A stretch of 64,000 nucleotides of DNA from Candidatus Omnitrophota bacterium (GTDB taxonomy: Bacteria; Omnitrophota; Gorgyraeia; Zapsychrales; Zapsychraceae): assembly GCA_020632515.1 (NCBI GenBank), contig JACKFK010000011.1, positions 1,284-65,283 of the forward strand, in the 5' to 3' direction. The first letter of the stretch is position 1. Each line of letters starts with the position of its first letter. The position numbers were made by a program, and so were the translations under genes. Under the pieces are notes generated by a model. It was not told the DNA's origin, did no database searches, and was given only the letters and a program-made list of their open reading frames with translations. Below, piece by piece: positions 6,183 through 49,418 of the stretch.

Positions 6183-6218
6183 CCTACTATTGAAACCTGT
6201 GAAAAAGGAGCAAAATCT

Positions 6219-10177: not shown

Positions 10178-11538
10178 AAATTGCATTAATGGCACCAGCA
10201 GGTGCAATGCATAGATATAAGGGGAGTTTTGCCAAAGCACTTCATTATTCTCCTTTAACATTAACAACCTTGGCTGCATTAGTCCCACCTGAATTGGATG
10301 CAGAAATTGAAATCTATGATGAGACTGTTGAGTTTCTTCCAAAGAATCCAGATGCAGATTTAATTGGTATGACAGTTATTACAGGAACGAGTCAGCGTGC
10401 GTATGAATGGGCTGGGTACTATAGAAGTTTGGGTAAAACGGTTATTTTAGGGGGAGTTCATCCATCGTTTGTTCCGAATGAAGCTAAAGAACACGCAGAT
10501 GCGGTTGTTGTAGGTGCTGCAGAACAAACTTTTCCAGAGTTATTGATGGATTATAAAAAAGGGCAACTCAAACCATTTTATCATCAAGGCAGTAATTTTA
10601 CACTTGTAGGAAGACCGCAACCACGAAGAGATTTATTAAAAAAAGACAGATATATTACGACGAATACTATTGAAGCGACAAAAGGATGTATACATTCATG
10701 TCGATTTTGTGTAACACCAGCAATGACAGGTCAAAATGTTTCAACTCGACCTGTCAAAGAGGTGATTGCCGAGATTGAACAGTTACCAGGCAAAGAAATG
10801 GTTTTTGTTGATGTCAATTTAATAGCAAATCCTGGGTATGCTAAAGAATTATTTAGGGAGCTCATTCCTTTGAAGAAAATGTGGTTTGGTTTAGTGACTG
10901 TCAATATTGGTAAGAATAAGGAGTTATTTGATTTAATGGTTAAAAGTGGGTGCCGTGGAGTATTAATTGGATTTGAAGCTATCACATCCGATTCACTTAA
11001 AAGTATTGATAAAGGTTTTAATAGAGTCAGTGAATATGAATTGTTGGTCAAGAAATTACATGATGCAGGAATCATTATTAACGGAACTTTTGTACTTGGG
11101 ACGGATGGTGATGATAATTCAGTTTTTTCAAGAACATTTAATATGATCCAAAAACTTAAAATAGATCTACCAAGATTTTCTGTGATGACACCATTTCCAG
11201 GAACACCATTATATCGATCGTTAGAACAAGCAGGACGTATCATTGATCGTAATTGGGCAAATTATGATGTAGAGCATTGTGTTATTCAACCAAATCAAAT
11301 GACACCAGAAGAATTAGAAAAAGGATTAGAGTGGACTTGGAAGCAAACATATAAGTACTCATCAATTCTTCAAAGAATTGCGGGAATTAATTCTAGATTG
11401 ATGTTAAACGTTCCTGTTAATCTCGGTTATCGACAGTATGCCACCAAATTACCAAAGTTTCCTAAAGAAGTCATGATGGATAATTCGGATGTACCATATT
11501 ATGAAAAAAATAACATTTATATACCCAGCAGTAGGTAA
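10174..11538 (+). CDS. B12-binding-domain radical SAM enzyme (class B type)
   Basis: N-terminal Rossmann-like cobalamin-domain pattern (DLIGMTV...VILGGVHPS). Radical SAM cluster motif C-IHS-C-RF-C. ATGA start/stop overlap with the Rieske gene. Confidence 0.8.
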   Translation: MKIALMAPAGAMHRYKGSFAKALHYSPLTLTTLAALVPPELDAEIEIYDETVEFLPKNPDADLIGMTVITGTSQRAYEWAGYYRSLGKTVILGGVHPSFVPNEAKEHADAVVVGAAEQTFPELLMDYKKGQLKPFYHQGSNFTLVGRPQPRRDLLKKDRYITTNTIEATKGCIHSCRFCVTPAMTGQNVSTRPVKEVIAEIEQLPGKEMVFVDVNLIANPGYAKELFRELIPLKKMWFGLVTVNIGKNKELFDLMVKSGCRGVLIGFEAITSDSLKSIDKGFNRVSEYELLVKKLHDAGIIINGTFVLGTDGDDNSVFSRTFNMIQKLKIDLPRFSVMTPFPGTPLYRSLEQAGRIIDRNWANYDVEHCVIQPNQMTPEELEKGLEWTWKQTYKYSSILQRIAGINSRLMLNVPVNLGYRQYATKLPKFPKEVMMDNSDVPYYEKNNIYIPSSR

Positions 11539-12838
11539 AAAGCCAGGCACTAAGTATATTAGGACGTGGAAGATGGAACCTCTACCAATTGCAGCTTTGG
11601 CGTCGTTAACTCCTGATGATATTGAAACGGAATTCTTCGACGATCGATTAGAGCTTATTGATTACGAAACAGAAACGGATTTGGTCGCAATCACAGCGGA
11701 AACATATACTGCTATGAGAGCTTATGATATTGCCGATAAGTTTCGCAAAAGAGGTATTAAAGTAGTATTGGGAGGCTATCATCCAACACATTTACCAGAA
11801 GAGTCTGGAAAATATGCGGATAGTGTTGTCATAGGAAATGCAGAGAGTGTGTGGGAGCAGTTACTTAAAGATGCGAATAACGGTGGGCTTAAAAAAGTAT
11901 ACAAAGGAGTAGTAGGAGAATTCTCTGGATTACCAAATCGTGATATTTTTAAAGGGAAAAATTATGTAAAGCTCGGGTTAGTTGAAACAGGACGTGGGTG
12001 TCCTTTTAAATGTGAGTTTTGTCATATAACAACATATTATAATGCTAAATATTATTCTAGACCAATAAAGGATGTTGTTGAAGATATCAAACGTTCAGGA
12101 AAAAAATTATTCTTTTTTTGTGATGATAATTTTGTGGCTAATCCAAAGTATACAATTGAGTTATGCAAAGAGTTAGTAAAATTAAATATCAAATTTTCTG
12201 GGCAAGGAACCATTACAATGGCAAAAAATAAAGAACTGTTGTATTGGTTGAAAAAGGCTGGATGTGTACTGTTATTGATCGGCTTTGAATCTATGGAAGA
12301 TGAGAATCTAAAAAGAGTCAATAAGGATTGGATGAGTGAAGTTGGAGATCGAGGAGAGTTAGTTGATAATATTCATCGAGCAGGAATCAGTATCTATGCA
12401 ACGTTCATTTTTGGATTAGATCATGATACACAAGATACTTTTAAAAAAGCTATTGATTTTGCCCATGAAAAAGGATTTTATTATACCGCGTTTAATCATT
12501 TATTACCTTTTCCAGAAACGCCATTATACAGGCGGTTAGATAAAGAAAATCGATTGATTAATCGACACTGGTGGCTAGATAGGAATTATAAGTATGGGGA
12601 TATTGCGTATCAACCGATAAATATGACACCCCAGCAATTAACAGAAGGTTGCCTTAGTGCACGAAGAAAGTTTTTCTGTTATTCATCTATATTTAAAAGA
12701 GCTATTCGTCTTTTGAAAAGAAATCCTTCGTTATCGTTTCTTTACGTATTTTTACATTCAAATTTAAATTTAAAAGATGAAGTGGAAGGGAAATATAGTC
12801 TTCCCCTTGGGAGTGGTCTTGATGAATTGCCTAAGTAA
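11501..12838 (+). CDS. B12-binding-domain radical SAM enzyme (paralog of the previous gene)
   Basis: DLVAITA...VVLGGYHPT cobalamin-domain pattern and a C-PFK-C-EF-C cluster motif. Same architecture as 10174-11538. The start is ambiguous (11489 or 11501). Confidence 0.8.
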   Translation: MKKITFIYPAVGKKPGTKYIRTWKMEPLPIAALASLTPDDIETEFFDDRLELIDYETETDLVAITAETYTAMRAYDIADKFRKRGIKVVLGGYHPTHLPEESGKYADSVVIGNAESVWEQLLKDANNGGLKKVYKGVVGEFSGLPNRDIFKGKNYVKLGLVETGRGCPFKCEFCHITTYYNAKYYSRPIKDVVEDIKRSGKKLFFFCDDNFVANPKYTIELCKELVKLNIKFSGQGTITMAKNKELLYWLKKAGCVLLLIGFESMEDENLKRVNKDWMSEVGDRGELVDNIHRAGISIYATFIFGLDHDTQDTFKKAIDFAHEKGFYYTAFNHLLPFPETPLYRRLDKENRLINRHWWLDRNYKYGDIAYQPINMTPQQLTEGCLSARRKFFCYSSIFKRAIRLLKRNPSLSFLYVFLHSNLNLKDEVEGKYSLPLGSGLDELPK

Positions 12839-13931
12839 CAGATTTATAATAGAACCTGCTAAAGCATCAGATGGTCTTGAAATGCTTCAGTTATTAGAGC
12901 AAACGCCTTTTGAGGGCAAGGTGTCGTTATTATATACACGTCGACCAGATGCCTATCAATCTTTTCTATATGAGGGAAGAAATATGGAAGTATCTGTTTG
13001 CAGAGATCTTCAAGAAGGAAAGATTATTGCTATAGGGGCATATGTTATTCAAGTTGTTTATATCAACAATAAAGAGGAGCAGGTGGCGTATATATTTGGA
13101 TTGAAAGGGTATTCTGATTATTTAAAGTCACATCCTTTGTTGCATAGGTTTTATGCCTATCTGGAGGAGAATCTTAAAAGGAATAATATACGGTTTTGTT
13201 ATACGACTATTTTGGAAAGTAACCATTATGCACAAAGGTTATTGGAAAAGAAGAGAAGAATTATGCCACATTATGAAAAATTTGGGAGGTATGAAACATT
13301 TGCAATAAGGAATACATCAAGAAGAAAGAAACATAACGGTTATGTCTTTACGAAAGCCTCTAAAGAAGATCTTCCAGAAATGGTTCGATTCTTGAATCAA
13401 GAAGGATCTAAGTGTCAGTTCTTTCCTGTAGTTAAATTAGACGATATTTTAAGTGAAACATTTAAAGGGATAAATACTGATAGTTTTTATATTGTTAAGC
13501 AAGATGACAAAATTATAGCTGCGGGTGCTATTTGGGATCAGGGAGATTATAAACAATATATTGTTCAGCAATACTCAGGTTTCTTAAGAATCTTTAATAA
13601 GTTGCAACTATTGTCTGCACTATTTCAAATACCGTCTCTTCCTGATCCAGGACAAGCATTAAAATTTTATACATTGTCTCGCTGGGCTATTAAAGATAAT
13701 GATAAAACGATCTTCAATGTTTTCATGGATAATTTGAAAGATCATACCCAAGATTATCCATTTATGCTCATTGGAGTTCATGAAAGTCATCCTTTGAGAA
13801 ATGAGTTAATGAATCGTAAGCATATAAAATATAGTAGCAATGTCTATCTTGTTGATTGGGTTAAGAAGATAAGTCCCCTAACATTACTTAATACAGAGAT
13901 GTCATCTTATATTGAATGCGGAGCCTTATGA
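12822..13931 (+). CDS. Hypothetical protein, acyltransferase-like (tentative GNAT/FemAB-like fold)
   Basis: About 370 aa in two halves. Only the N-terminal half shows an acetyltransferase-like sequence segment (IIAIGAYVIQVVYINNKEE...AYIFGLKG). No named motif is recognised. The start is ambiguous (12777 or 12822). Confidence 0.35.
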   Translation: MNCLSNRFIIEPAKASDGLEMLQLLEQTPFEGKVSLLYTRRPDAYQSFLYEGRNMEVSVCRDLQEGKIIAIGAYVIQVVYINNKEEQVAYIFGLKGYSDYLKSHPLLHRFYAYLEENLKRNNIRFCYTTILESNHYAQRLLEKKRRIMPHYEKFGRYETFAIRNTSRRKKHNGYVFTKASKEDLPEMVRFLNQEGSKCQFFPVVKLDDILSETFKGINTDSFYIVKQDDKIIAAGAIWDQGDYKQYIVQQYSGFLRIFNKLQLLSALFQIPSLPDPGQALKFYTLSRWAIKDNDKTIFNVFMDNLKDHTQDYPFMLIGVHESHPLRNELMNRKHIKYSSNVYLVDWVKKISPLTLLNTEMSSYIECGAL

Positions 13932-34204: not shown

Positions 34205-35032
34205 ATGAATAATCCATTTTTCAGCGTTATTATTCCAACTTATAATCGACGAAATTTCTTGAAAAAGGCGGTTGATTCTGTTTTAGCGCAAACGTCTCGC
34301 AATTTTGAATTGATTGTTGTGGATGATGGTTCAACCGATGGAACGGATCAGCTTATTCGTACATATCAAGATTCGCGTATTCTTTATTTACATCAGGAGA
34401 ATAAAGGTGTGGCAGCGGCTCGTAATTATGGTTTGGCTAAGGCGCAAGCCCAATGGATTGCCTTTTTAGATTCCGATGACTGGTGGTTGCCGCGGAAATT
34501 AGAAACCGGGAAAAAGTTTATTCAAAGAAATTCAAAAATTGAAATTCTTCATACGCAGGAAAAATGGCTTCGCGCTGGAATTCGTGCACAGCAGAAAGCA
34601 AAACATCGAAATCCTTGCGGTTATGTTTACGCGAAAGTGATTAAAGTTTGTTGTGTTTCAATATCGACGGCAATTATTAATAAGAGTGTTTTTGACGCGA
34701 TCGGCGCTTTTGATGAATCTTTCCCAGCCTGCGAAGATTATGATTTTTGGTTAAGGGCAGCGTATCAATATGAAATCCATTTGATACCGGAATATTTGAC
34801 AGTCAAAGAAGGAGGTCGAGAAGATCAGTTGTCTGCTCAATGGGGATTAGATAAATTTCGGGCTCAAGCGCTACGTAAAATTTTATTGTCGGGTAAACTT
34901 GATCAGGCGGCATATGATCTTACATTTCAGGAATTAGAGAAAAAAGTGAAGATTTATGCGCATGGGGCTGAGAAGAGAGGTCGGATTGAAGAGGCGGCGA
35001 GTTGGCGGGAAATGTTAGAGGTGTCCGGATGA
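34205..35032 (+). CDS. Family 2 glycosyltransferase
   Basis: FSVIIPTYNRRNFLKKAVDSVLAQT, VVDDGSTD, and a DSDD (DxD) motif. Confidence 0.8.
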   Translation: MNNPFFSVIIPTYNRRNFLKKAVDSVLAQTSRNFELIVVDDGSTDGTDQLIRTYQDSRILYLHQENKGVAAARNYGLAKAQAQWIAFLDSDDWWLPRKLETGKKFIQRNSKIEILHTQEKWLRAGIRAQQKAKHRNPCGYVYAKVIKVCCVSISTAIINKSVFDAIGAFDESFPACEDYDFWLRAAYQYEIHLIPEYLTVKEGGREDQLSAQWGLDKFRAQALRKILLSGKLDQAAYDLTFQELEKKVKIYAHGAEKRGRIEEAASWREMLEVSG

Positions 35033-36213
35033 AAATTAATAAAAATATTTTTCCTAAAAGTATTTTCTTTTATTTTTTCTTAATGCTTCTTTTCAGTATG
35101 TGTTTTATTTTTTTTGCCGGACAATTGAAACTGGCCGCGGAAAAACACTTTTGGCTAGATGAAGAATATGGGATGAGAACCTCGATGAAGGATCATTCTT
35201 ATTTTGATATTTTACTTCATGGCGCGAAAGGTCAGGGCAGTCCGGCTCCATTGGATTATCTGGTTGGTAAATTGTTTATTGATGTGAAGCAGGCGTTTAA
35301 TATTCACCTTCAAGATGAAGTTTATTTTCGGTTGTGGCCGATTAGTGTGACGGTTTTGAATGTATTCTTTATTGCTATTTTATTTTTAAAGAATATTGCA
35401 GACAAGTCGTTATCTTTGCCTGTAGAAGCTTTATTGATGGCGATGGTGGTGATGGCGGGATACGCGTATTTATTCAGCCGCATGGTTTATTATTATGCGA
35501 TAGAAACGCGTCCTTACGCGTTATGGAACGCGTTATGGATGCTATCTTTAGGTATAAGCTTATTGAATCGAAAAACTAATCGTTTATTAGTGACAATTTT
35601 AGTATTGTTAGCGTTGTCTGCCACAGCATCCCTTTTTCAATTGGGGATGATGGCGGTGGCATTTTTTTTCTTAGAATGGAAGAGACAGTCTTCGTTATCG
35701 AAAGGAATTTTTTCAACAGTTAGGGTTTTTATTCTTCCTTTACTTGTATCCTTTTATTATTGCTTGCAAGCGGGAGAGTGGAGTGTGCGCGGGGCTGGCG
35801 GAACCTTTGATGGATTTATGGATTTTTGGATGAATAAAGCTGTGTTGATTCCGCTGATGGGATCTGCTTTGGTAATGTGTTTTGTTCGATTAGAAAATCG
35901 ACAATATGCATTGGCACCGCTTAGTGCTTTATTATTATTTTTAATTGGCCCAATGATTTTTTATATCACAAAATTAAAAGGTTTTTTCTATGTTGAGCGG
36001 CAGTTTATTTATTATGAAATGACCAATGCTGTATTTTTGTTGACGATTGTGCAGTGTTTGCCTGCTTTACTGAAGAATTTAAAATTAGGAAAAGTGATGT
36101 ACAGCATATTAGCGATTATTTTTATTATTTCTTTCAATCTTACTTTTCGATCAAAATTGAATAATAAATTTATTCAATCCATAGCGAAAACATACGAAAT
36201 TATAAAAAATTAA
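35029..36213 (+). CDS. Polytopic membrane protein, possible GT-C-type glycosyltransferase
   Basis: ATGA overlap with the GT2 stop. About 11 hydrophobic spans. I cannot name a motif. Confidence 0.35.
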   Translation: MKINKNIFPKSIFFYFFLMLLFSMCFIFFAGQLKLAAEKHFWLDEEYGMRTSMKDHSYFDILLHGAKGQGSPAPLDYLVGKLFIDVKQAFNIHLQDEVYFRLWPISVTVLNVFFIAILFLKNIADKSLSLPVEALLMAMVVMAGYAYLFSRMVYYYAIETRPYALWNALWMLSLGISLLNRKTNRLLVTILVLLALSATASLFQLGMMAVAFFFLEWKRQSSLSKGIFSTVRVFILPLLVSFYYCLQAGEWSVRGAGGTFDGFMDFWMNKAVLIPLMGSALVMCFVRLENRQYALAPLSALLLFLIGPMIFYITKLKGFFYVERQFIYYEMTNAVFLLTIVQCLPALLKNLKLGKVMYSILAIIFIISFNLTFRSKLNNKFIQSIAKTYEIIKN

Positions 36214-36383
36214 TAAGAATTGGATTTCTTGTCGTCGGGAAATATTATGTGTGTACTAACCTGTGTGTAGATATAAAATATTTCTATAAAGTGTTGCTAT
36301 TGAATGATTTCGCTTTACAATAAATATAATTATAAAAATTGATAGAAATTTTTAAATAAATCTAAATTTAAAAAGGGGGCAAA

Positions 36384-37628
36384 ATGAAACGCATCATCGG
36401 TCTCACAAGTTTTATTTTAATGGTAGTTTGTAGTATAAGCGTAAACTCAGCTTTTGCTGGAGAGTCTCTCAAAGATGCTCTTATGGAAGGGAAGCCTTAC
36501 GCAGATGTTCGTTATCGGTATGAGTATGTTGATCAAAAGAATGTAAACGAAAATGCTAAGGCGAGCACCTTACGTACACGCTTAGGGTATAAATCTGGAA
36601 AATGGTATGATTTTGTTGGTGTTATTGAAGGAGAGAATGTCTCTTATATAGGAAGCGATGATTACAATGATACGGTTAATAGACGAACAGATCACCCCGT
36701 TGTTGCTGATCCGGAAAATACACAGATTAATCAGGCTTATTTAGAGTATTCAGGAATTCCAAATACAATAATTAAAGGCGGACGTCAAGTGATTGCTTTA
36801 GATGATCATCGTTTTATCGGTCATGTTGGCTGGCGGCAAAATAATCAGGTCTTTGACGCAGGGGTGTTGACAAATAATTCTATTGAAAATACCACTGTGA
36901 TGTATGGATTTATTTATAATGTGAACCGTATTTTTGGTGAACAATCTGCTGCTGGAGATTGGAAATCGCAAAGCCATTTTTATAATATATCTAATACTAG
37001 TTTACCAATAGGTAAAATTACTACTTATGGATATATTTTAGACTTTGGGGATGATTCTTCAGCAAATTCAAGTGCAACATTTGGTCTTAGTTTGTCAGGT
37101 AAAAAGGCCTTAAATGATGAGATTAATTTAAAATATTATGGGGCGTATGCAAATCAATCTGATTTTGCGAGTAATGCAACTGATTATAATGCGAATTATT
37201 ATCATATTGCGCCGGCACTCGAATGGAAAGGGTTAACAACCACGGTAGGATATGAGGTTTTAGGGAGTGATAGTAGTAAATTTGGTTTTGCGACTCCTTT
37301 AGCAACGCTTCACAAATTTAATGGTTGGGCGGATAAATTTCTTTCAACTCCTGCCACTGGGCTTGAAGATTTTTATGTTGATTTGGGTTACAAAGTAGCT
37401 GGTTTAGAAGGAAATTTAGAGTTTTTTAATGGATTATTAGCTAAATTTCAATATCATGATTTTCAAGCCGAAGATGGTGGGGCTGATTATGGTAATGAAT
37501 GGGGTATTTATCTAAAACATCCCATAAAGAAAAATATGTATGTAGAAACAAAATATGCTGATTACAATGCAGATTCCTTTTCAACAGATACAAAGAAATG
37601 GATTCTTGGGTTTGGTTTGACCTATTAG
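36384..37628 (+). CDS. Outer-membrane beta-barrel (porin-like) protein
   Basis: Signal peptide ...VNSAFAGE, amphipathic beta pattern, and C-terminal ...ILGFGLTY. Confidence 0.6.
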   Translation: MKRIIGLTSFILMVVCSISVNSAFAGESLKDALMEGKPYADVRYRYEYVDQKNVNENAKASTLRTRLGYKSGKWYDFVGVIEGENVSYIGSDDYNDTVNRRTDHPVVADPENTQINQAYLEYSGIPNTIIKGGRQVIALDDHRFIGHVGWRQNNQVFDAGVLTNNSIENTTVMYGFIYNVNRIFGEQSAAGDWKSQSHFYNISNTSLPIGKITTYGYILDFGDDSSANSSATFGLSLSGKKALNDEINLKYYGAYANQSDFASNATDYNANYYHIAPALEWKGLTTTVGYEVLGSDSSKFGFATPLATLHKFNGWADKFLSTPATGLEDFYVDLGYKVAGLEGNLEFFNGLLAKFQYHDFQAEDGGADYGNEWGIYLKHPIKKNMYVETKYADYNADSFSTDTKKWILGFGLTY

Positions 37629-38597: not shown

Positions 38598-38625
38598 TTG
38601 ACAATCGTTTACCATATGGTAATCT
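38598..38625 (+). promoter_or_regulatory. Promoter driving the riboswitch leader
   Basis: TTGACA (38598-38603), a 16-nt spacer, then TAATCT (38620-38625). Confidence 0.5.
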
Positions 38626-38649
38626 TAAAAAGTCTGAGTTCTTTTATAT

Positions 38650-38815
38650 AGTCTTTTGAAAAAGGCAAACTATCCGAAAGGATAATCCAAAGATTTTTTT
38701 GGATCATCAATAAGTATTATTGGTGGGGCGCAAAGCTAATAGAACCTTAATTTTCTTTAAGTATATTTTAGAGAAAATATGGTAGTCAGCTGCCAATGAG
38801 TCGATTTTTAGACTT
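38650..38815 (+). promoter_or_regulatory. c-di-GMP-I (GEMM-I)-like riboswitch aptamer with an inserted pair of hairpins
   Basis: GGCAAAC-TATCC-GAAA-GGATA (38664-38685), GGGGCGCAAAGC (38725-38736) and GGTAGTCAGCTGCC (38781-38794) parallel GGCAAACC..CGAAAG..GGGACGCAAAGCC...GGUAGGUAGCGGGG of the Vc2 GEMM-I RNA. The closing helix is AGTCT/AAAAA (38650-38663) with TTTTT/AGACT (38805-38814). Confidence 0.6.
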
Positions 38816-38818
38816 TTT

Positions 38819-38848
38819 AGCCCATCAAAATTTTTGATGGGCTTTTTT
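38819..38848 (+). terminator. Intrinsic terminator forming the riboswitch expression platform
   Basis: AGCCCATCAAAA-TT-TTTGATGGGCT followed by TTTTTT, about 100 nt upstream of the 38953 start. Confidence 0.75.
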
Positions 38849-38952
38849 ATTTGATGCCCTATTTAAGGAAGGGTGAATTATCTTTTAATTTAGGAAGAGT
38901 TTAAGTAGTTAAAATTTATAAAATTGGTGAAGTAAAAAATTAGGAGAAAAAA

Positions 38953-40872
38953 ATGAAATTATTAAACAATCAAAGAAAATTAATAACTTTTCTTACTGTT
39001 GGTGCTTTTGTTGTTTTTTCTTTTCCCTTAAATGTATTTGCTCAGGCGCAATTTGGAGCAGATAATTTTGTTGAAGGTGTGGGAGTTCCAGAAGGAGAGT
39101 TTGTTGAAGGGGCAGAAGTTCCAGAAGGAGAATTTGTCGAAGGGGCTGGTTCTCCAGAGGGAGAGTTTGTTGAAGGTGCTGAAGTTCCAGAGGGAGAATT
39201 CGTTGAAGGGGCAGAAGTTCCAGAAGGAGAGTTTGTCGAAGGCGCAGAAGTTCCAGAAGGAGAATTTGTCGAAGGTGCTGGTGCTCCAGAGGGAGAATTC
39301 GTTGAAGGGGCAGAAGTTCCAGAAGGAGAGTTTGTTGAAGGGGCAGAAGTTCCAGAAGGAGAATTCGTTGAAGGTGCAGAAGTTCCGGAAGGAGAATTTG
39401 TCGAAGGGGCTGTTGAAGGTGAAGAGCTTGTTGGAAAAAATGATAGTGTGAACAAATCAAATATACCAAATACACAACAAGCAAAACAATTAACTATTGA
39501 TCAGTCAAAAGAATTAATTGCTTTGCCTCAATCTGAAATGAAAGAATTACAACGGGCTTTGGCAGAAATGGCAAGAGATTCGTCGCAGAAAGATTTGTAT
39601 CAAGAGTTAGGAGGTATTTTAGCTGCCGAAGTACAACTTGTCATTGAACCAGAGGCATTATCAAAGAATGATGGGGTAAAGGGAATTAATCCTGCAAATG
39701 AAAATGGATTTCAAGGGCCTGGACCAAATGGAGAGATGCTAGTAGATGCTCCTCAACAGGGAACAGGAGCTCCAATGCCCGGTGAAATGGCTTTAGGTCC
39801 ACAAGGTCCATTGATGGGAGGCGGAGTAGGTCCTGAAGGTATTATGGGCGCACCAGGCGAGCAGGGGGTAATGATGATGGGGATGGATGGTGGTGTTAGG
39901 CCAGGGATGGAAGGACCCCGTATCATGGATTTTGGTGAATTTATGCAAGGTGTTCAAATGCAATCTATGGGATTGGAAATGGAAAAGCATGGGATGTCTA
40001 AAGAAAAAGTAAATGAATTAATGGATAAGGGAATGGATATGTTAGCCCAAGCTAATGGAAATCAAAATGTTTTTGGTGAAATTGTTCAGCTAGCCATGAA
40101 TTTCTCACAAGGCCCTCAAGGACCGATGGGACCAGCTCCTGATGGTAATATGGGGCCGCCTATACCAGGACAAGATGGTATGATGGGGCCAGGGCCGATG
40201 ATGGGACAAGATGGTATGATAGGACCGGGACCAGGTGGAGAAATGGGGATGTTTGATATGCAGGGTTTTGCTCAAGCCTTAGGATTTGATCCAAATGGAA
40301 TGGGACCTGCAGGACCTAATGGTCCAAATGAATTTGGTCCCCATGATGGTGTTATGGGACCGGCACCGGGAGAATTTTTTGGACCCGGACCAGGAGATGG
40401 ATTTTTTGGACCAGCGCCAGGAGAGTTTTTTGGACCAGAAGGTGATTTTATAGGGCCTCCTCCTGGAGAATTTGAGTTTGTAGAGCCTCCAGAGTTTGAT
40501 CCTGATAATCCTCCTGGACCCCCGCCAGGATGTGATAGTGCTTGTCTTTTTGAAACAGCGTTAAATGAAGCGCGGGTGGTGGCCACTATTGTAGGTTTTA
40601 ATCCCGCAGATAATGGAATTACTAATAGAAATTTAGAAAATCCAGCAACAAATTATGTAGTTAATTTAGCTGGAATTGCAAATGCTGATTTAACAAATAA
40701 ATATGCTCAATTGAATCCAGGGATTCAGCAGCAAATATATTTAGAATCACTATTTGATCAATATAGTGCTTCTGATGAAGCTAGAAAAGATGCTATTTGT
40801 GATTTGAATCATGATCATGGGCATTCTCATACGAGTTTGACAGAACAATGTCATACTGATGGGAATAATTAA
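38953..40872 (+). CDS. Secreted repeat protein: 11-aa acidic tandem repeats, a Gly/Pro/Met-rich low-complexity region, and a Cys/His-containing C-terminal domain
   Basis: GGAGAAAAAA RBS and signal peptide ...FPLNVFAQA. Contains (FVEGAEVPEGE)x10, a long G/P/M-rich segment with recurring GEF(F) units, and a C-terminal DLNHDHGHSHTSLTEQCHTDGNN. Confidence 0.7.
   Translation: MKLLNNQRKLITFLTVGAFVVFSFPLNVFAQAQFGADNFVEGVGVPEGEFVEGAEVPEGEFVEGAGSPEGEFVEGAEVPEGEFVEGAEVPEGEFVEGAEVPEGEFVEGAGAPEGEFVEGAEVPEGEFVEGAEVPEGEFVEGAEVPEGEFVEGAVEGEELVGKNDSVNKSNIPNTQQAKQLTIDQSKELIALPQSEMKELQRALAEMARDSSQKDLYQELGGILAAEVQLVIEPEALSKNDGVKGINPANENGFQGPGPNGEMLVDAPQQGTGAPMPGEMALGPQGPLMGGGVGPEGIMGAPGEQGVMMMGMDGGVRPGMEGPRIMDFGEFMQGVQMQSMGLEMEKHGMSKEKVNELMDKGMDMLAQANGNQNVFGEIVQLAMNFSQGPQGPMGPAPDGNMGPPIPGQDGMMGPGPMMGQDGMIGPGPGGEMGMFDMQGFAQALGFDPNGMGPAGPNGPNEFGPHDGVMGPAPGEFFGPGPGDGFFGPAPGEFFGPEGDFIGPPPGEFEFVEPPEFDPDNPPGPPPGCDSACLFETALNEARVVATIVGFNPADNGITNRNLENPATNYVVNLAGIANADLTNKYAQLNPGIQQQIYLESLFDQYSASDEARKDAICDLNHDHGHSHTSLTEQCHTDGNN
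39067..39415 (+). repeat. In-frame 33-nt tandem repeat, about 10.5 copies
   Basis: The unit is TTT GTT GAA GGN GCA GAA GTT CCA GAA GGA GAR. Most differences between copies are third-position synonymous changes; units 1, 3 and 7 also carry amino-acid replacements (VG, GS, GA for AEV). Confidence 0.95.
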
Positions 40873-40900: not shown

Positions 40901-40932
40901 AAGGCCTTCGAGAGAATATTCTCGAAGGCCTT
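40901..40932. terminator. Bidirectional terminator between convergent genes
   Basis: Perfect 13-bp stem AAGGCCTTCGAGA-GAATAT-TCTCGAAGGCCTT, flanked by an A-run upstream and T-rich sequence downstream. Confidence 0.8.
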
Positions 40933-40951: not shown

Positions 40952-42079
40952 TTAAAAGTTTAAAGTAAAACCCATTTTATTGGTAAAGTCTTCAAAATTT
41001 CCAGTTCCTGCATTTGAACTAGATTTCTTATGTGTAAACGTATAATTTAATTTGGAATATTTGTTAAGTGTATAATTTGCGCTTAACCGATGGGAGAGGG
41101 CTTGATCCCAGCGAGCTGTAGAAGCGGCAACTCGGGCGAAATATTGTTTGACTTCAAAATCAGTAGTATAACTTAAATATAGTTTATTTTGTTCAAGAAA
41201 ACCTGCAGACAAAGTTATTTCGCCTTTATGGGCATCATAATCATTGAAATCTTGGTACTCGTCATTTGATTTGTTTCTATAAGATTTTCCTTTTACTTTT
41301 ATACTGTATTTTCCAATGAATCGTTTAATCCAAAGTTCGCCAGTATGGCGCGTATCGTTACGTATTAAATCTTTAATATCCGTCTGGCTGCTGTTGCGGG
41401 CGAGATCATGATCATAATCTTTTGATGTATATTCATATTTTCCTCCCCAATTCCATTTTGATGTAAAGTAGTGTGTGAATTGAAGAAAATATTTTGATTG
41501 TTCGTAGCTGGAATCTTCGGCTTTGGGATAGATTAACCATTGATAGGATGTTCCAGGTGTAATGGCCAGTTTGCCGTTAAGCAATCGATAGGTAATGTCT
41601 CCAGATATGGTGTAATCACGAGTGCTTAATGTTTTATTGTTATCATAATCAAAATTGATAAGACTGAAACCAGCATTTCCGCTTAAATTAGGGGTAAATT
41701 TTGGGGTCCAATTAAGATTGAGGGTTTCTTCGAAGGCAAAGTCATCTTTGGCTGATCCCTGAACGGCGCTTGTGGGATTCGTTTCTACTTGATAGGTAAA
41801 ACCTGTGGAGATGCGTGTCTGAAGAAGTTCACGTCTACGTTTTTCAGCGCGGCGTTCTTCGGCTCGTTTTTTCAGCATATCAAGTACTTCTTCAGCTGTT
41901 TTTGGTTTCTCCTGCAAACGGCGCATTTCTTCAAGTTCTTCTTTTCGGCGTTCACGTTCTAGTTCAATTTGTTCTCGGGCTTCTTCAGCGGCTGTTTGCG
42001 CATAGGTCAAGGAAGGATAGACAAAGAGTAAGGAAAATAAAAAGAATAAGAGTGAAGGTGCTTTTATGTAAAATTTCAT
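40952..42079 (-). CDS. Outer-membrane beta-barrel protein with an N-terminal charged coiled-coil segment
   Basis: Signal peptide ...SLTYAQT, an E/R/K-rich helix (aa 30-85), beta-strand pattern, and C-terminal ...MGFTLNF. Confidence 0.6.
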   Translation of the reverse strand: MKFYIKAPSLLFFLFSLLFVYPSLTYAQTAAEEAREQIELERERRKEELEEMRRLQEKPKTAEEVLDMLKKRAEERRAEKRRRELLQTRISTGFTYQVETNPTSAVQGSAKDDFAFEETLNLNWTPKFTPNLSGNAGFSLINFDYDNNKTLSTRDYTISGDITYRLLNGKLAITPGTSYQWLIYPKAEDSSYEQSKYFLQFTHYFTSKWNWGGKYEYTSKDYDHDLARNSSQTDIKDLIRNDTRHTGELWIKRFIGKYSIKVKGKSYRNKSNDEYQDFNDYDAHKGEITLSAGFLEQNKLYLSYTTDFEVKQYFARVAASTARWDQALSHRLSANYTLNKYSKLNYTFTHKKSSSNAGTGNFEDFTNKMGFTLNF

Positions 42080-42195: not shown

Positions 42196-42744
42196 ATGTT
42201 GAATTTTAGAGCGAGTATTTTTTTAAATAAAAGAAAAATTATAAAAATTTGTTTAGTAGGTGTAATTTTTTTTATAGTGCATTCGGAACCTATTCTTATA
42301 AAGAAAGCAATGGGTGAAGAGAATCTTTCCAATAATAATTCTCAAAAACCTTCATTAATTGATCAGCTCGCTCCTAATTTTTTATTAACAACACTTAATG
42401 GAGAAACGTTTAATTTATCTGAGGTTATTAAGAATCGAAGGGCGATGATTTATTTTTGGGCTACGTGGTGTCCAAATTGTCTTAAGAAGTTACAATATTT
42501 CAGTGAGTCAGCAGAAATGTTTGAGCAACAGAATATAGCTTTGGTGATTATAAATTACGGAGAGGAAAAAGAACGCGTTGTAGAATATATTAATCAATAT
42601 AATATTGATCTAAACATTGTATTGGATCAAGAAAAGTCATTGCAAAAATCTTATGATTTGAATTCTTTGCCAACGTTGATTTTTATTAATTCAGAAGGAC
42701 TTATAAAGAATATAAAACATGATCTTGATTTGCATAATTTATAA
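42196..42744 (+). CDS. TlpA/redoxin-like thiol:disulfide oxidoreductase, membrane-anchored
   Basis: N-terminal TM helix and a W-C-P-N-C thioredoxin-fold active site (FWATWCPNC). Confidence 0.75.
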   Translation: MLNFRASIFLNKRKIIKICLVGVIFFIVHSEPILIKKAMGEENLSNNNSQKPSLIDQLAPNFLLTTLNGETFNLSEVIKNRRAMIYFWATWCPNCLKKLQYFSESAEMFEQQNIALVIINYGEEKERVVEYINQYNIDLNIVLDQEKSLQKSYDLNSLPTLIFINSEGLIKNIKHDLDLHNL

Positions 42745-42752
42745 CTTTGGTT

Positions 42753-43577
42753 ATGACCGATAGTGAATTTCAACATAAAATTAGTGAAAAGTTGCTCGCT
42801 GCAGTTGTTCGTTTTTCTCAAGATTCAATTATTATTACTTCCATTGATTTAGATTCTCCGGGTCCGCGTATTATTTATGTGAATCCTGGGTTTACTCAAA
42901 TGACCGGATATTCTCCCGAAGAAGTGTTAGGTAAAACGCCGCGGATTCTTCAAGGGCCTAAAACTGACAGTGAGGTGTTGAGACGGCTGCGAAAGGCGTT
43001 AGAGTCGCAAGAAGTGTTTTATGGTCAAGCTATTAATTATCGAAAGGATGGTACAGAGTTCTGGAATGAATGGCATATTGAGCCAATTCGAGATGACGAT
43101 GGTAATTTGACGCATTACCTTGCAATCCAACGGGATGTTACTCAGCGTAAGATGGCAGAGCAGGCCTTGGAGCAAAAAAATGTGGCTTTAAAGGAGGTGT
43201 TAGAGCAAATTGAGATTGAAAAAAAGAAGATCAGAGATGATGTGGTTCTCAATGTTGAGGAGGTTTTGCTCCCTGTGTTTCAGAAATTGCGCCGTAAAGG
43301 AAACTCCATGGATCGCAAGTATTTAGATATATTAGAGCAAAATTTGAAGGATTTAACTTCTTCTTTTGGGATGAGCGTGTCTGAGAAAAAGTTTAAGTTG
43401 TCCCCAAGGGAGGTTGAAATTGCTAATTTGATAAAAAGTGGGTTAACAGGCAAGGAGATATGTGGTATACTTCACATATCATTTAAGACTGTTGAAACTC
43501 ACCGTAATAAAATTCGGAAAAAACTAGGCATCTTAAATAAAGACATCAATTTAACTACTTATTTACAAAGTATTTAA
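42753..43577 (+). CDS. LOV-like PAS domain (lacking the adduct-forming Cys) + coiled-coil linker + LuxR-type HTH
   Basis: GFTQMTGYSPEEVLGKTPRILQGPKTD...NYRKDGTEFWN...LAIQRDVT aligns to the LOV consensus GF..LTGY..eEvlGrNCRFLQGp.TD...NYrKdG..FWN...Q.DvT. Thr-Pro replaces Asn-Cys. C-terminal LSPREVEIANLIKSGLTGKEICGILHISFKTVETHRNKIRKKLG. Confidence 0.7.
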   Translation: MTDSEFQHKISEKLLAAVVRFSQDSIIITSIDLDSPGPRIIYVNPGFTQMTGYSPEEVLGKTPRILQGPKTDSEVLRRLRKALESQEVFYGQAINYRKDGTEFWNEWHIEPIRDDDGNLTHYLAIQRDVTQRKMAEQALEQKNVALKEVLEQIEIEKKKIRDDVVLNVEEVLLPVFQKLRRKGNSMDRKYLDILEQNLKDLTSSFGMSVSEKKFKLSPREVEIANLIKSGLTGKEICGILHISFKTVETHRNKIRKKLGILNKDINLTTYLQSI

Positions 43578-45665: not shown

Positions 45666-46604
45666 ATGAGCAAAAATCAGCTGCTTTCCATTATCCTGCC
45701 AATTCATAATGAAGAGGAAAATATTGAGCCTCTTTATGAACGTCTTGCCAAGGTTTGTCAAAAAAATCAAATTAATTATGAAATTATTTTCGTCAATGAC
45801 GGTAGTAATGATCAAGGGTTGCAGAGAGTGCTTCATTTGCAGAAGAAAGATTCTCGTGTTAAAGCTATAGATTTTTCAAGGAACTTTGGTCATCAGATTG
45901 CCATTAGCGCAGGGATGGAGTTTGCCAAAGGCGCTGCAGTATTGGTGATGGATGCGGATTTACAAGATCCTCCGGAGATGATTCCTAAATTTGTTGAAAA
46001 ATGGAAACAGGGTTTTGATGTGGTCTACGCGATTCGTAAGAATCGAAAGGGGAGCCCTTTAAAACGAATTATGTATAAATTGTATTATCGTATTTTAAAT
46101 AAATTGGCTGATTTAGATATGCCTCTTGATTCGGGAGATTTTCGATTGTTTAGTCGCAGGGCAGTGGATCGTATTATTCAATTTGGTGAGAAGCGTCGTT
46201 ATTTACGCGGGCTTTCCAGTTTGATTGGATTTGATCAGATTGGAATTGAATATGACCGGCCACAACGTCGGGCGGGAAAGACAAAATATTCTTATCGTAA
46301 ATTATTTAATTTGGCTTGGGAAGGTGTTACAGCGTTGAGTATTAAACCTCTTCGTGTGGCGACTTATTTAGGAGTTACGGTAGCATTCATCGCGGTTGCT
46401 TATATGATACGTGTTTTTTATATGCGTCTTTTTACAGATACGTATATTCCAGGATGGTCCTCGCTTATGACGGTGTTATTACTGTTAGGATCGGTGCAAT
46501 TAATTTGTATAGGAATTATTGGGGAGTATATTGGGCGAACGGCTGAAGAGGTGCGCGATCGACCATTATATATTATCCGAAAAATATACGAGAAAGAATC
46601 ATGA
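45666..46604 (+). CDS. Polyprenyl-phosphate glycosyltransferase (GT2, ArnC/GtrB/DPM1-like)
   Basis: LSIILPIHNEEENI, VNDGSND, DADLQDPPE, and two C-terminal TM helices. Confidence 0.8.
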   Translation: MSKNQLLSIILPIHNEEENIEPLYERLAKVCQKNQINYEIIFVNDGSNDQGLQRVLHLQKKDSRVKAIDFSRNFGHQIAISAGMEFAKGAAVLVMDADLQDPPEMIPKFVEKWKQGFDVVYAIRKNRKGSPLKRIMYKLYYRILNKLADLDMPLDSGDFRLFSRRAVDRIIQFGEKRRYLRGLSSLIGFDQIGIEYDRPQRRAGKTKYSYRKLFNLAWEGVTALSIKPLRVATYLGVTVAFIAVAYMIRVFYMRLFTDTYIPGWSSLMTVLLLLGSVQLICIGIIGEYIGRTAEEVRDRPLYIIRKIYEKES

Positions 46605-47617
46605 CGTCAAAACAGATGTTTTTCATTGTTGGTCGTGGCCGTTCAGGTACGTCGCTGTTGCAGACAATTTTAAATCAGCATCCGCACATCGCAGTGGCGC
46701 CGGAAGCTCAGTTTGTTATGCTTTTATATCGGAAGTATCGAAGGCGGAAATTTGATGAGAAAGTTATATTGAATTTTTATCAGGATTTATTTTTGGAGGC
46801 TAGACTGAAGAATTGGAAAATCGATAAAACTCTACTTAAAAAAGAGTTATTAGCTATTGATAAACCAGATTTTTCTAAATTAACGCACTGTGTGTATGCT
46901 CATTATGGACATCAGCGAGGAAAGATAAAACCGTTGATTTTGGGAGATAAAAATCCGCATTATGCTCTTTTCGTTAAAGATTTGATTCAAATTTTTCCCA
47001 AAGCAAAATTTATTCATCTTATAAGGGACGCGCGCGATAACGTTCTTTCTTATCGAAATGTTTCTTTTGATATGAAATCCACGACTGCTTTGGCTTATCG
47101 GTGGAATTTTTATCATAAAGAAATTCTTAAGGTAAGTGAACAGTATAATGCGCAGTTTACACGATTGTATTTTGAGCAATTAATTGAATCTCCAGAGAAA
47201 GAACTACGACGTATTTGTCGATTTCTTGGTGTTGGCTATAATCCGGGGATGCTTCAATTCTATCAATCTGTGGAATGGGATACGCCATGGCGGAGAAATT
47301 TATATAAACCGTTAGATAGAAACTTGCCGCAAAATTGGCGGCAAAAGATGTCGCAAGAGGATATTGGTGCTGTTGAGTGTGTTTGTGGAAAGTTATTATC
47401 TAAATTTTCTTATTCAGTAAGTTTAAGCAATGTTACACCAATAAAATATTACTTTATTAAAATTTTTGGTTTTTTTTGTGCAGGTATTTATACTTGCTTG
47501 GAGAAGGTTATTTATTATTTCCCCATTAGATTTGTTGCGTGGTTTTTGATCGGTTATCGTAAATTAACAGGAACGTGGATTACCGAGGAGAAATCAACGG
47601 CAGGCGTGCATGCGTAG
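46601..47617 (+). CDS. Sulfotransferase with a C-terminal membrane anchor
   Basis: 5'-PSB-like IVGRGRSGTSLL and 3'-PB-like LIRDARDNVLSY. The hydrophobic tail is IKIFGFFCAGIYTCL...FVAWFLIGY. ATGA overlap with the GT2 gene. Confidence 0.7.
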   Translation: MTSKQMFFIVGRGRSGTSLLQTILNQHPHIAVAPEAQFVMLLYRKYRRRKFDEKVILNFYQDLFLEARLKNWKIDKTLLKKELLAIDKPDFSKLTHCVYAHYGHQRGKIKPLILGDKNPHYALFVKDLIQIFPKAKFIHLIRDARDNVLSYRNVSFDMKSTTALAYRWNFYHKEILKVSEQYNAQFTRLYFEQLIESPEKELRRICRFLGVGYNPGMLQFYQSVEWDTPWRRNLYKPLDRNLPQNWRQKMSQEDIGAVECVCGKLLSKFSYSVSLSNVTPIKYYFIKIFGFFCAGIYTCLEKVIYYFPIRFVAWFLIGYRKLTGTWITEEKSTAGVHA

Positions 47618-49418
47618 AAAAATCAGCAGGCAAGAGGGGTCCCTTTCGAATAAATTTTTCTTTCCTGGGGTTATTTCTTTAGTTTTCTTTTATTATAGTT
47701 TTTATTTTTGGGCAGAATTTTTTATCAAATATTTTTTTGATCAAGGCCGCTTTGATTTGCTAAATGTGTGGTCAGGGGCACTGCAGAATTATCCGTTGGA
47801 TTATTATCTTGGTCAGATAGAAAATCGTTTTTTTGGTCCTGGTAAGATGATTTTAAGCGGCGGAGCATTTATGGCAATTGCCTGGAGGTATTTGAAAACT
47901 AGAAGTCTTTGGATGTATATGTTGGCGGTGTTTTTATATTTTTTAGTTACACGTCCAGAGGTCTTGATGTATCCCCCATTTGGAGAATCAGTAACTGCTC
48001 CGTATGCGGAGGCAGTTTGGCTTGTACGAAATTCTTTAAACTATTTTGAGTTGCAGCAACAGTTGCCCAAGACTTTAGGTGGGATGTTGTATTATCCGTT
48101 CTCCATTTATTCCTTTCTCGCAGCTGTATTTTTAAAATTCTTACCGGGTGCTATTGTTTTTAATCTGACAATGCATGTAATAACTTTCTTAATGTCAGCC
48201 AGTATTGTGGCTGTTTTAAGAGAAATTTTACGACAGTATTTCAATGATGAAATAGCGTTATTAGGATCTTTCTTATTATTATCACTGCCGATTTATCAGT
48301 GTATGACAGAAATGATTAATATGGAAATGTCTTTAGTTTTTTTTGCTGTTTTTAGTTTCTATTATTTAATTAAAAATAGAATGATCCAAGCTTTTGTGTT
48401 TGCTGTTTTATCGATGCTAATTAAGCTCCCAGGAGCTATAGCATGTGGGGCTGTTTTTATTTATAGTTTCTTTTTAGCAGCGCAGAAAAACATTAAATCA
48501 GAAAGAATTAAAATTGTTTTTTTAGGCGTGTTAGCTGTTCTTTTGACGGGAGGGAAGCTAGTGTTAAGGTTAATCTTTCGGCAAGGGCAGACAAAGCAAA
48601 ATACAATTAATTTTTTAAATGGGTTGTCAAATATAATCATTATGCCGGAATTTTGGATGTTTTGTGCTATTTCGATAATATTTTTTTTGCAATTTATAGT
48701 AAAACTTTTAAGAAAAGAAAACCTTTCTAAAGAAGTTTTACGAAAACATACTGTTTTATGGTTGTCTTGGTTTATGTCACTGGTATGGTTTGGGTTATAT
48801 GCAAATTTTTCTGTTATGGGGCCGCGGTATAAATTGCTGCTTTATCCTTTTTTGATTATTGTTTTGACTGTTTGTTTACATAGACTTTTTTTGATAAAGA
48901 AAAATGTTTTGAAAGTGATTTTTTCAGTAATGATACTGTGGAATTTAATTGGGTCTTTTGGCTGGCCAACAACAGACTATGTGGCATCGGGGGTCTATGG
49001 ATTTAATTCTTTAGAGAGGTCGTTAGAATATCGTAATATGCTGAAATTGCAAATAAAATTATCGGCATTGATTGAAGAGAAATATTCTGATTTTATTATC
49101 GGAGCCCCGCATGTTATTGCACAGGCGTTGCATTTTAAGGAATTGGGATATGTATCTAAAGAGATGGAGGTGGTTGTTTACGGGATGAATCCAACACATG
49201 GGTTAAGACCTGTTCCTCCAATGACGACATATACGCTTTTGAATATGCGTTGGATTGCTTTTGATACAAGTTCTAATCCACGGATTCCCTTTCCGTATCC
49301 GATGGATCCTAAAGATGTTGTTTTGGATCATTTATGGGTGGGAGATCGGCATATTTATATTTTTCAGGGTGGATTTGCGATTGAGAAAATGCGTGAAATT
49401 ATTTCCAGAATGGATTAA
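47610..49418 (+). CDS. Large polytopic membrane protein, putative GT-C (ArnT/PMT-like) glycosyltransferase
   Basis: 602 aa with more than 12 hydrophobic spans and a C-terminal soluble domain. Overlaps the sulfotransferase stop by 8 nt. The family assignment is inferred from context. Confidence 0.4.
   Translation: MRRKISRQEGSLSNKFFFPGVISLVFFYYSFYFWAEFFIKYFFDQGRFDLLNVWSGALQNYPLDYYLGQIENRFFGPGKMILSGGAFMAIAWRYLKTRSLWMYMLAVFLYFLVTRPEVLMYPPFGESVTAPYAEAVWLVRNSLNYFELQQQLPKTLGGMLYYPFSIYSFLAAVFLKFLPGAIVFNLTMHVITFLMSASIVAVLREILRQYFNDEIALLGSFLLLSLPIYQCMTEMINMEMSLVFFAVFSFYYLIKNRMIQAFVFAVLSMLIKLPGAIACGAVFIYSFFLAAQKNIKSERIKIVFLGVLAVLLTGGKLVLRLIFRQGQTKQNTINFLNGLSNIIIMPEFWMFCAISIIFFLQFIVKLLRKENLSKEVLRKHTVLWLSWFMSLVWFGLYANFSVMGPRYKLLLYPFLIIVLTVCLHRLFLIKKNVLKVIFSVMILWNLIGSFGWPTTDYVASGVYGFNSLERSLEYRNMLKLQIKLSALIEEKYSDFIIGAPHVIAQALHFKELGYVSKEMEVVVYGMNPTHGLRPVPPMTTYTLLNMRWIAFDTSSNPRIPFPYPMDPKDVVLDHLWVGDRHIYIFQGGFAIEKMREIISRMD

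Follow-up and report, generated by a model that had tools for sequence, protein, structure and literature searches.

A c-di-GMP-I riboswitch with a two-hairpin junction insert in the leader of a gene for a predicted secreted protein of Candidatus Omnitrophota

We analyzed a 64,000-nucleotide (nt) stretch of DNA from a Candidatus Omnitrophota bacterium (contig JACKFK010000011.1, positions 1,284 to 65,283 of the forward strand), which we call the window and number from its first letter. The subject here is the 5' leader that precedes a gene for a 639-residue protein at 38953-40872 on the + strand. The leader holds a member of the cyclic di-GMP-I (c-di-GMP-I, or GEMM-I) riboswitch class, which any annotation based on Rfam would call, and it has the layout of an expression platform, with a promoter at 38598-38625, a terminator at 38819-38852, and the open reading frame (ORF) from 38953. 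We think it probable that this class-I element serves its monocistronic gene as a transcriptional OFF switch. The riboswitch class is already known; this new member of it has an insert in the aptamer junction that recurs in other leaders, and a target gene that is conserved and uncharacterized.

The initial annotation of this DNA had proposed a GEMM-I-like aptamer, and the covariance-model search bears this out. When the whole window was compared with 4227 Rfam families by cmscan, RF01051 (c-di-GMP-I) matched positions 38654-38797 (+) over the full model (1-87) with 46.5 bits (E 6.4e-6; the gathering score is 35 bits). This is the sole match at the gathering threshold in the 64 kb, and no further family, RF01786 (c-di-GMP-II) included, is found there up to E 0.5 once overlapping clan matches are removed. 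The sequence blocks and the promoter that had been named from reading the letters are present at, or next to, the places given for them. The aptamer opens with GGCAAAC (38664-38670), continues into a P2 hairpin (38670-38685, CUAUCC-GAAA-GGAUAA, folding at -5.3 kcal/mol) capped by a GNRA tetraloop, GAAA, at 38676-38679, and has two further conserved blocks, GGGGCGCAAAGC at 38726-38737 and GGTAGTCAGCTGCC at 38781-38794. In the alignment to RF01051, P3 spans 38734-38791 and the junction pairs G21-C22/G45-C46 correspond to 38665-66 with 38730-31.

The positions that we take, from the Vc2 structures, to be the ligand contacts are G20, A47, and C92; in the model alignment they fall on 38664, 38732, and, for the C92 equivalent, 38793. 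The features of the tertiary contact are retained as well: the C before G45, a bulged G at 38785, the GAAA loop, and the two halves of the P3 receptor, UAUGG at 38778-38782 and CCUUAA at 38745-38750, the latter one base off the CCUAAG consensus. The window aptamer thus resembles Vc2 of Vibrio cholerae, the crystallized GEMM-I reference, in its GGCAAAC block, GAAA-capped P2, G(A/G)C-GC-AAAG segment, P3 with a UAUGG half, and closing ..GCC, and it keeps all three contact bases. On these grounds it is predicted to bind c-di-GMP.

GEMM-I scaffolds can be retuned by one or two base changes, and the GEMM-I class selective for cyclic GMP-AMP (cGAMP) carries A20. A different ligand, either 3',3'-cGAMP (GEMM-Ib) or that of an RF03167- or RF03168-type variant, therefore has to be weighed, and the insert described below could in principle reshape the pocket. 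We regard such a ligand as very improbable, since every one of the nine leaders of this gene family, the window among them, has G20 and A47. The window has G at 38664 and not the A20 of GEMM-Ib, and its A47 is not the G that marks the c-di-GMP-I-GGC variant RF03167, a model that is not reported here at E ≤ 0.5 with overlapping clan matches taken out. RF01051, rather than a variant model, is the best match in the window.

The nine leaders come from loci that were reached in two ways, through the protein (the window, L001, L012, L013, L014/15, and L016) and through the convergent neighboring gene (L018, L019, and L021/22). A GEMM-I aptamer lies upstream in all nine, and a terminator of the form GCCCAUyCU...AGrAUGGGC followed by a U run is kept in all nine, so that aptamer, terminator, and gene stay together as the regulatory unit that the initial annotation had assumed. 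Four of the aptamers are canonical and score 60-77 bits (L014, 76.7; L019, 70.3; L012, 66.1; L021, 60.4, the last scoring best against the RF03167 model with A47 retained). The other five carry an insert and score 34-46 bits: the window (46.5), L016 (41.3), L013 (37.3), L018 (34.5), and L001 (33.7). L018 is mis-anchored by the model; its true 5' half, GGGCAAACUAUCUGAAAAGAUAGGGC, sits upstream of a 59-nt insert. The four canonical leaders have the same gene family downstream and the same layout of promoter and terminator as the window.

The core helices of these RNAs covary. RNAalifold mispaired GGCA with UGCC in its consensus, and we therefore counted the Rfam structure explicitly on 10 distinct aptamers from which the inserts had been excised. 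The core helices are paired in 97.5% of cells, and 13 of 21 pairs are changed on both sides, among them C22-G45, replaced by U-A in three sequences. When the structure is slid by 1-3 columns, at most 41% of cells are paired, and none of 500 shuffles reaches the observed covariation score. Between the window and the orthologous leader L001, the compensatory changes include GGC..GC to GGU..AC and AGCU/AGCU to AACU/AGUU. This covariation shows that the aptamer is under selection as an RNA structure.

The two additional hairpins that the initial annotation had flagged as atypical for the class are real. Folds and an alignment with the relatives place a 41-nt insert at 38686-38726 (+), between P2 and the GGC junction; the RF01051 alignment skips 42 nt after P2. 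The insert folds into hairpin 1 at about 38685-38704 and hairpin 2 at 38705-38725. In Vc2, P2 runs straight into GAC-GC, whereas the window has 41 nt between them, giving a formal five-way junction, together with a longer P3 loop. The compact three-helix junction in which the 3' strand of P2 is joined directly to GAC-GC, an arrangement that is typical of GEMM-I and not strictly defining, is thus absent from the window. The P2 drawn by cmscan itself, which pairs CUAUCC with UGGUGG and leaves the insert in the loop, was rejected. Canonical L012 has the identical local hairpin, CUAUCCGAAAGGAUAA, followed directly by GGCGCAAA; since L012 reads CUAUCCGAAAGGAUAA-GGC-GCAAA where the window reads CUAUCCGAAAGGAUAA, the 41 nt, and then GGC-GCAAA, the local GAAA hairpin is P2. 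We note an alternative extended hairpin between 38681-38691 and 38698-38708 (GATAATCCAAA / TTTGGATCATC, 91% complementary), which would take in some of the P2 3' strand along with the first bases of hairpin 2 and would therefore compete with both. The insert occurs once in the window, with no second copy elsewhere in it, and the idea of a mobile or repeated element was rejected on that ground.

Equivalent two-hairpin inserts of unrelated sequence are present in four other leaders of the family, L001, L013, L016, and L018, those of the last three having been read by eye. To these a pattern scan of genome and metagenome collections, set to find GEMM-I cores whose corresponding junction is enlarged by 35-65 nt, added examples outside the family: L004/L011 from Candidatus Auribacterota, L005 and L007 from Planctomycetales, and L006 and L008 on unassigned metagenome contigs. 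On RF01051 five of these reach 35-56 bits; for L007 the score is 30 bits, against a variant model. Their aptamers lie at 3272-3402 (L004), 5387-5514 (L005), 896-1032 (L006), 413-537 (L007), and 1369-1489 (L008). By inspection, a terminator-like hairpin and a U run follow each of them, and most are followed by a gene for a small or secreted protein. The downstream genes are unrelated and differ from that of the window: they encode a 527-residue Gly-rich secreted protein, exported proteins of 111 and 88 residues, and a response-regulator receiver. Further matches of the scan were set aside as chance or irrelevant, having no covariance-model support (L002, which holds tandem canonical aptamers, L003, L009, and L010).

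Insert-bearing aptamers are thus found in at least nine leaders besides that of the window. In each of seven sequences that were folded, the extra stretch gives two adjacent hairpins or is compatible with them, and the stems, loops, and lengths of the inserts are unrelated between sequences. No conserved loop motif is seen among the inserts compared. GEMM-I can accordingly accommodate two additional hairpins directly beside its binding pocket, and it does so repeatedly; the understanding of the class itself is unchanged by this. There is a practical consequence, in that standard models under-score the insert-bearing aptamers (three of the nine in the family are concerned: L001 and L018 fall under the gathering score, and L013, with 37.3 bits, lies about at it), so that searches tuned to the canonical form miss members.

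Transcription of the leader would start from a sigma-70-type promoter at 38598-38625, with a -35 box TTGACA (38598-38603), a 16-nt spacer ending in TGn, and a -10 box TAATCT (38620-38625). The predicted start lies at about 38631-38633, some 7 nt past the promoter. The -10 box matches at only three of six positions, and for that reason a simple scan overlooked the promoter. In the alignment of homologous leaders the -35 box lines up in five of six, with L001, which is shortened in the alignment, carrying TTGTCA/TATCTT, and an ATGG[C/T]A..T -10 region aligns among them. The aptamer is followed by an intrinsic terminator at 38819-38852, whose arms (38819-38830 and 38832-38843) are 100% complementary, fold at -15.2 kcal/mol, and are followed by the U tract TTTTTTATTT. 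A strong terminator about 100 nt before the start codon had been claimed, and this one ends ~104 nt ahead of the ATG at 38953. A ribosome-binding site, AGGAG, stands at 38942-38946, 6 nt ahead of the ATG. Just past the U tract, 38850-38864 contains a near-copy of the terminator 3' arm (TTTGATGCCCTATTT vs TTTGATGGGCTTTTT) that is 83% complementary to the 5' arm and may be a decoy or a second pairing partner.

Because the terminator lies wholly downstream of the aptamer, the bound aptamer cannot occlude it, and the evidence for the direction of control comes from a complementarity between the interior of the aptamer and the terminator 5' arm. In the window, the candidate antiterminator strand is UUGGUGGG at 38720-38727, made of the hairpin 2 3' strand and the junction G's, and it is complementary to CCCAUCAA at 38821-38828 in the terminator 5' arm. 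The duplex has a predicted energy of -12.2 kcal/mol, and 13 of 500 shuffles (7 of 300 in a separate run) are as good. The terminator 5' arm of L001, L012, L013, L014, L016, and L021 pairs best with the segment from +14 to +30 counted from G20, which comprises the P2 3' strand, GGC, and the next bases; the energies of these six duplexes lie between -12.4 and -17.6 kcal/mol, and of 500 composition-matched shuffles 1 to 27 are as good. The candidate strand of the window is the equivalent element, displaced together with GGC. Covariation is seen between the terminator flank and the bases that adjoin GGC: L001 has UUCU:AGAA and L013 has C:G, where the canonical leaders have GCAA:UUGU. In the minimum free energy (MFE) fold of the nascent RNA of canonical L012 and L014, an antiterminator of 12-19 bp buries G45, C46, and A47.

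The mechanism that we propose from this layout would run as follows. Transcription would start ~7 nt past the TTGACA/TGnTAATCT promoter, and the aptamer at 38654-38797 would fold, with P2 and its GAAA loop, P3 and its receptor, the junction G-C pairs, and the two-hairpin expansion before GGC. When no ligand is present, 38720-38727 would pair with 38821-38828 of the terminator 5' arm, and polymerase would read through into the gene. Binding of c-di-GMP at 38664, 38732, and 38793 would instead lock the junction, allowing the hairpin 38819-38843 to form and transcription to stop at the U tract, ~100 nt before the start codon. The insert may take part in this switch: the 3' strand of hairpin 2 in the window is the candidate antiterminator strand, and in L001 the 5' strand of hairpin 1 is part of the antiterminator.

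Experimental precedent comes from Clostridioides difficile, where 11 of 12 c-di-GMP-I riboswitches are OFF switches acting through premature termination (PMC3649979). In Cdi1_3 (upstream of flgB) and Cdi1_12 (upstream of CD2830), as in the window, the GEMM-I aptamer lies in a long 5' leader with an intrinsic terminator after it, and CD2830, which one OFF riboswitch precedes, encodes the precursor of an exported protein (PMC3649979). In C. difficile the OFF logic has been shown experimentally and at least one of the riboswitches controls a secreted protein (PMC3649979), whereas in the window the OFF direction is what the pairing pattern suggests. The systems differ further in their hosts (a Firmicute as against Omnitrophica), in the unrelated families of the regulated proteins, and in that the C. 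difficile riboswitches are described with the conserved GEMM domain, whereas the window carries the 41-nt two-hairpin insert.

The leader also contains a perfect 10-nt inverted repeat, 38626-38635 (TAAAAAGTCT) with 38810-38819 (AGACTTTTTA), which encloses the whole aptamer and ends on the first base of the terminator. It is the best candidate for the closing helix that the initial annotation had mentioned, and an uncertain one, since 38626-38635 straddles the predicted transcription start and most of that arm may therefore not be transcribed. For many surface proteins under c-di-GMP control, the ligand acts as an inducer. If bound c-di-GMP stabilized a long helix of this kind and its 3' strand interfered with the terminator, the leader would be an ON switch and high c-di-GMP would induce the protein, which is what one expects of a component of a biofilm matrix or an adhesin; the 10-bp pairing does abut the terminator, and a comparable helix in L001 overlaps the A-rich base of the terminator stem. 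We nevertheless think an ON switch unlikely. In the window the helix shares 1 nt with the terminator, and in L001 the shared part is confined to the A:U base of the stem, leaving the GC-rich core and the U tract untouched. The complementarity that is conserved connects the aptamer interior with the terminator 5' arm, as in the layout of an OFF switch.

Several observations weigh against control by c-di-GMP in the OFF direction. The antiterminator of the window is weak: it is absent from the MFE fold of the nascent RNA, and forcing it costs 3.2 kcal/mol before the terminator 3' arm is made. The antiterminator of the canonical leaders, by comparison, is an uninterrupted helix of 12-19 bp; GGC-GC-AAAAC is part of it, and in the window the insert splits that segment. 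The complementarity in L018 and L019 is no better than in shuffles. The window insert precedes GGC, whereas it follows GGC/GAC in all other insert-bearing examples, L004/L011 and L005-L008 among them, a shift of 3 nt. A 41-nt insert beside the ligand-binding junction could impair binding. Finally, a crude motif scan of the window ORFs found no GGDEF or EAL, and likewise no HD-GYP or PilZ.

The weak antiterminator and the unusual insertion point are what one might see if the insert had disabled sensing, leaving a decayed or ligand-blind aptamer in a leader that works as a constitutive attenuator or is regulated in some other way; the insert costs about 20-30 bits relative to the canonical relatives, which would fit. 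A dead aptamer seems to us quite improbable all the same, because every ligand- and tertiary-contact base is kept and because insert-bearing aptamers recur in the other leaders with covarying cores, which is not expected of decaying elements; a terminator and an ORF follow them wherever downstream sequence was examined. A c-di-GMP-responsive OFF switch thus remains the reading that we prefer.

A literature search for prior descriptions of GEMM-I insertion variants gave nothing relevant, and no paper was found that links c-di-GMP riboswitches to Omnitrophica, for which the present gene is a candidate c-di-GMP-controlled gene. It is possible, though we put it forward tentatively and with some doubt, that two larger statements hold together: that the two-hairpin expansion is a recurrent and apparently undescribed subclass of GEMM-I, spread over Omnitrophica and relatives, Auribacterota, and Planctomycetales, with its helices recruited into the expression platform; and that the disordered protein and the 14-strand barrel described below form a new c-di-GMP-repressed surface system in ultra-small uncultured bacteria.

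The regulated gene encodes a protein identical to H6755_06600 of an NCBI metagenome-assembled genome (Candidatus Omnitrophica bacterium). The signal peptide and the ten acidic repeats that the initial annotation had read from the translation are both found: a Sec-type signal peptide covers residues 1-30/32 (ending ..NVFA/QA), and Tandem Repeats Finder places a 33-bp repeat, present 10.4 times, at 39067-39410 (+); it encodes acidic EFVEGAEVPEG (E 33%, G 21%, V 17%) and is organized in 99-bp higher-order units, of which there are 3.5. The low-complexity region of about 270 residues described there is indeed rich in G, P, and M; it is interrupted by a folded helical module (residues 321-385), which divides it into residues 247-325 (G 28%, P 15%, M 14%) and 386-524 (G 27%, P 24%, F 10%, M 9%). 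The protein had also been said to end in DHGHSH, which is incorrect, as the sequence continues past this motif with TSLTEQCHTDGNN.

An AlphaFold model, built on an alignment of seven sequences, has a mean predicted local distance difference test (pLDDT) score of 46, with 472 of 639 residues (~74%) below 50, and two small modules are its only confident parts. Module 1 (residues 181-235; 39493-39657, +) is modeled as strand-helix-helix-strand at pLDDT 75-87, has the motif D..KE.I...E..LQ..IA, and is kept across the family. Module 2 (residues 321-385; 39913-40107, +) is modeled as three helices at pLDDT 80-87; it has the motif F..F..GV...MG..M, is the best-conserved block relative to P0002 and P0007, and is flanked by the Gly/Pro/Met/Phe-rich low complexity on both sides. 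The C-terminal region (residues 525-639; 40525-40869, +) contains Cys and His (..CDLNHDHGHSHTSLTEQCHTDGNN), is modeled as helical at low confidence, and is shared with P0002 only. From the model and the signal peptide the protein appears to be mostly disordered and secreted.

No family had been recognized for it, and the searches agree: the only Pfam hit is Mucin-like at E 0.14, under the cut-off, there is no match among NCBIfam or PDB sequences, and profile searches with the seven family members gave no match of note. A collagen-like or metal-binding assignment was rejected: no profile backs it, and P0002, the closest homologue, does not keep the His motif. The metal-binding idea rests only on the Met-rich stretches and the His/Cys tails.

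A word-indexed search found a single homologue, P0002, at 34% identity, to which a HMMER profile search over 1.84 billion representative proteins added P0003, P0005, P0007, P0022, P0027, and P0044 as true relatives. About 65 of the 75 matches in the profile search share the acidic repeat only and were discarded as low-complexity noise. The family has in common the ..FAQ end of the signal peptide, modules 1 and 2, low complexity of the GPxGF type and rich in Met, and a proline run. The region N-terminal of module 1 is acidic or repetitive and varies between members in sequence, length, and repeats. Most other members end in HHDLGD..H.DGD.H.C..P.CS, which ..NHDHGHSH..C.. of the window protein resembles and which P0002 lacks. 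In L018 (7720-8090 (-) and 6219-7728 (-)) the family gene downstream of the aptamer is called as two ORFs of 156 and 344 residues, which may reflect a frameshift or decay.

In all nine loci a convergent gene for a protein of 371-377 residues is adjacent to the family gene, tail to tail with it. In the window it lies at 40952-42079 (-) and encodes a putative outer-membrane protein of 375 residues, modeled by AlphaFold (pLDDT 77) with charged N-terminal helices and a 14-strand β-barrel. The riboswitch does not govern this gene, which has a promoter side of its own. At 40-57% identity over six loci, the barrel gene is better conserved than the riboswitch-controlled gene, and 14 homologues of its product were found. 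The only Pfam match is PF10082 (BBP2_2) with 23.7 bits at a cut-off of 23.7; the score against EpsL (TIGR03014) is 24.3 against a cut-off of 275, and the PDB sequences gave no match. By Foldseek, the nearest solved folds are the monomeric 14-strand channels CymA, OmpG, and FadL, which are generic, and a FapF-like amyloid secretion channel, which the barrel with its charged N-terminal helices had brought to mind, was dropped for want of specific support. A 14-bp terminator hairpin at 40901-40932, called on the + strand only, sits between the convergent genes and, from its position, would serve the minus-strand gene as well.

The signal peptide, the predicted disorder, the variability of the repeats, and the invariant pairing with an outer-membrane barrel lead us to infer that the 639-residue protein is located at the envelope or surface, has a role dependent on the barrel, and is expressed at low c-di-GMP. 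In the proposed mechanism, read-through would yield a Sec-exported disordered protein that works at the cell envelope together with the convergent 14-strand barrel. The initial annotation had guessed at an extracellular matrix, adhesin, or metal-binding protein; the proposed repression by c-di-GMP suits an induced biofilm matrix protein less well. An unannotated protein family with a conserved barrel partner, tied to second-messenger control in nine loci, offers a handle on function.

Some further features of the loci were observed. In L016 a group II intron fragment (RF01998, 53.6 bits) at 6184-6266 (+) lies between the family and barrel genes and widens the gap, and L021 has a partial Intron_gpII match at 11045-11119 (-), at the end of the locus. 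L013 has a gene for a CHASE2-GGDEF diguanylate cyclase at 11575-13302 (+), ~1.2 kb past the barrel gene. In the window, envelope and glycan genes at 34205-37628 and 45666-49418 include those for two GT2 glycosyltransferases, PMT/TMEM260-like membrane proteins, an alginate-export-like porin, a sulfotransferase, and an EpsG-like protein, which suggests a cell-surface neighborhood. The ORF at 42747-43577 (+) encodes a LOV/PAS domain fused to a LuxR-type helix-turn-helix (HTH), with a YtvA-family match at E 1.7e-36 and HTH matches, and its product looks like an EL222-type light-responsive transcription factor. A ResA/TlpA-like thioredoxin gene (42196-42744, +) stands directly ahead of it, and a thioredoxin-family gene is present at the matching position in L001.

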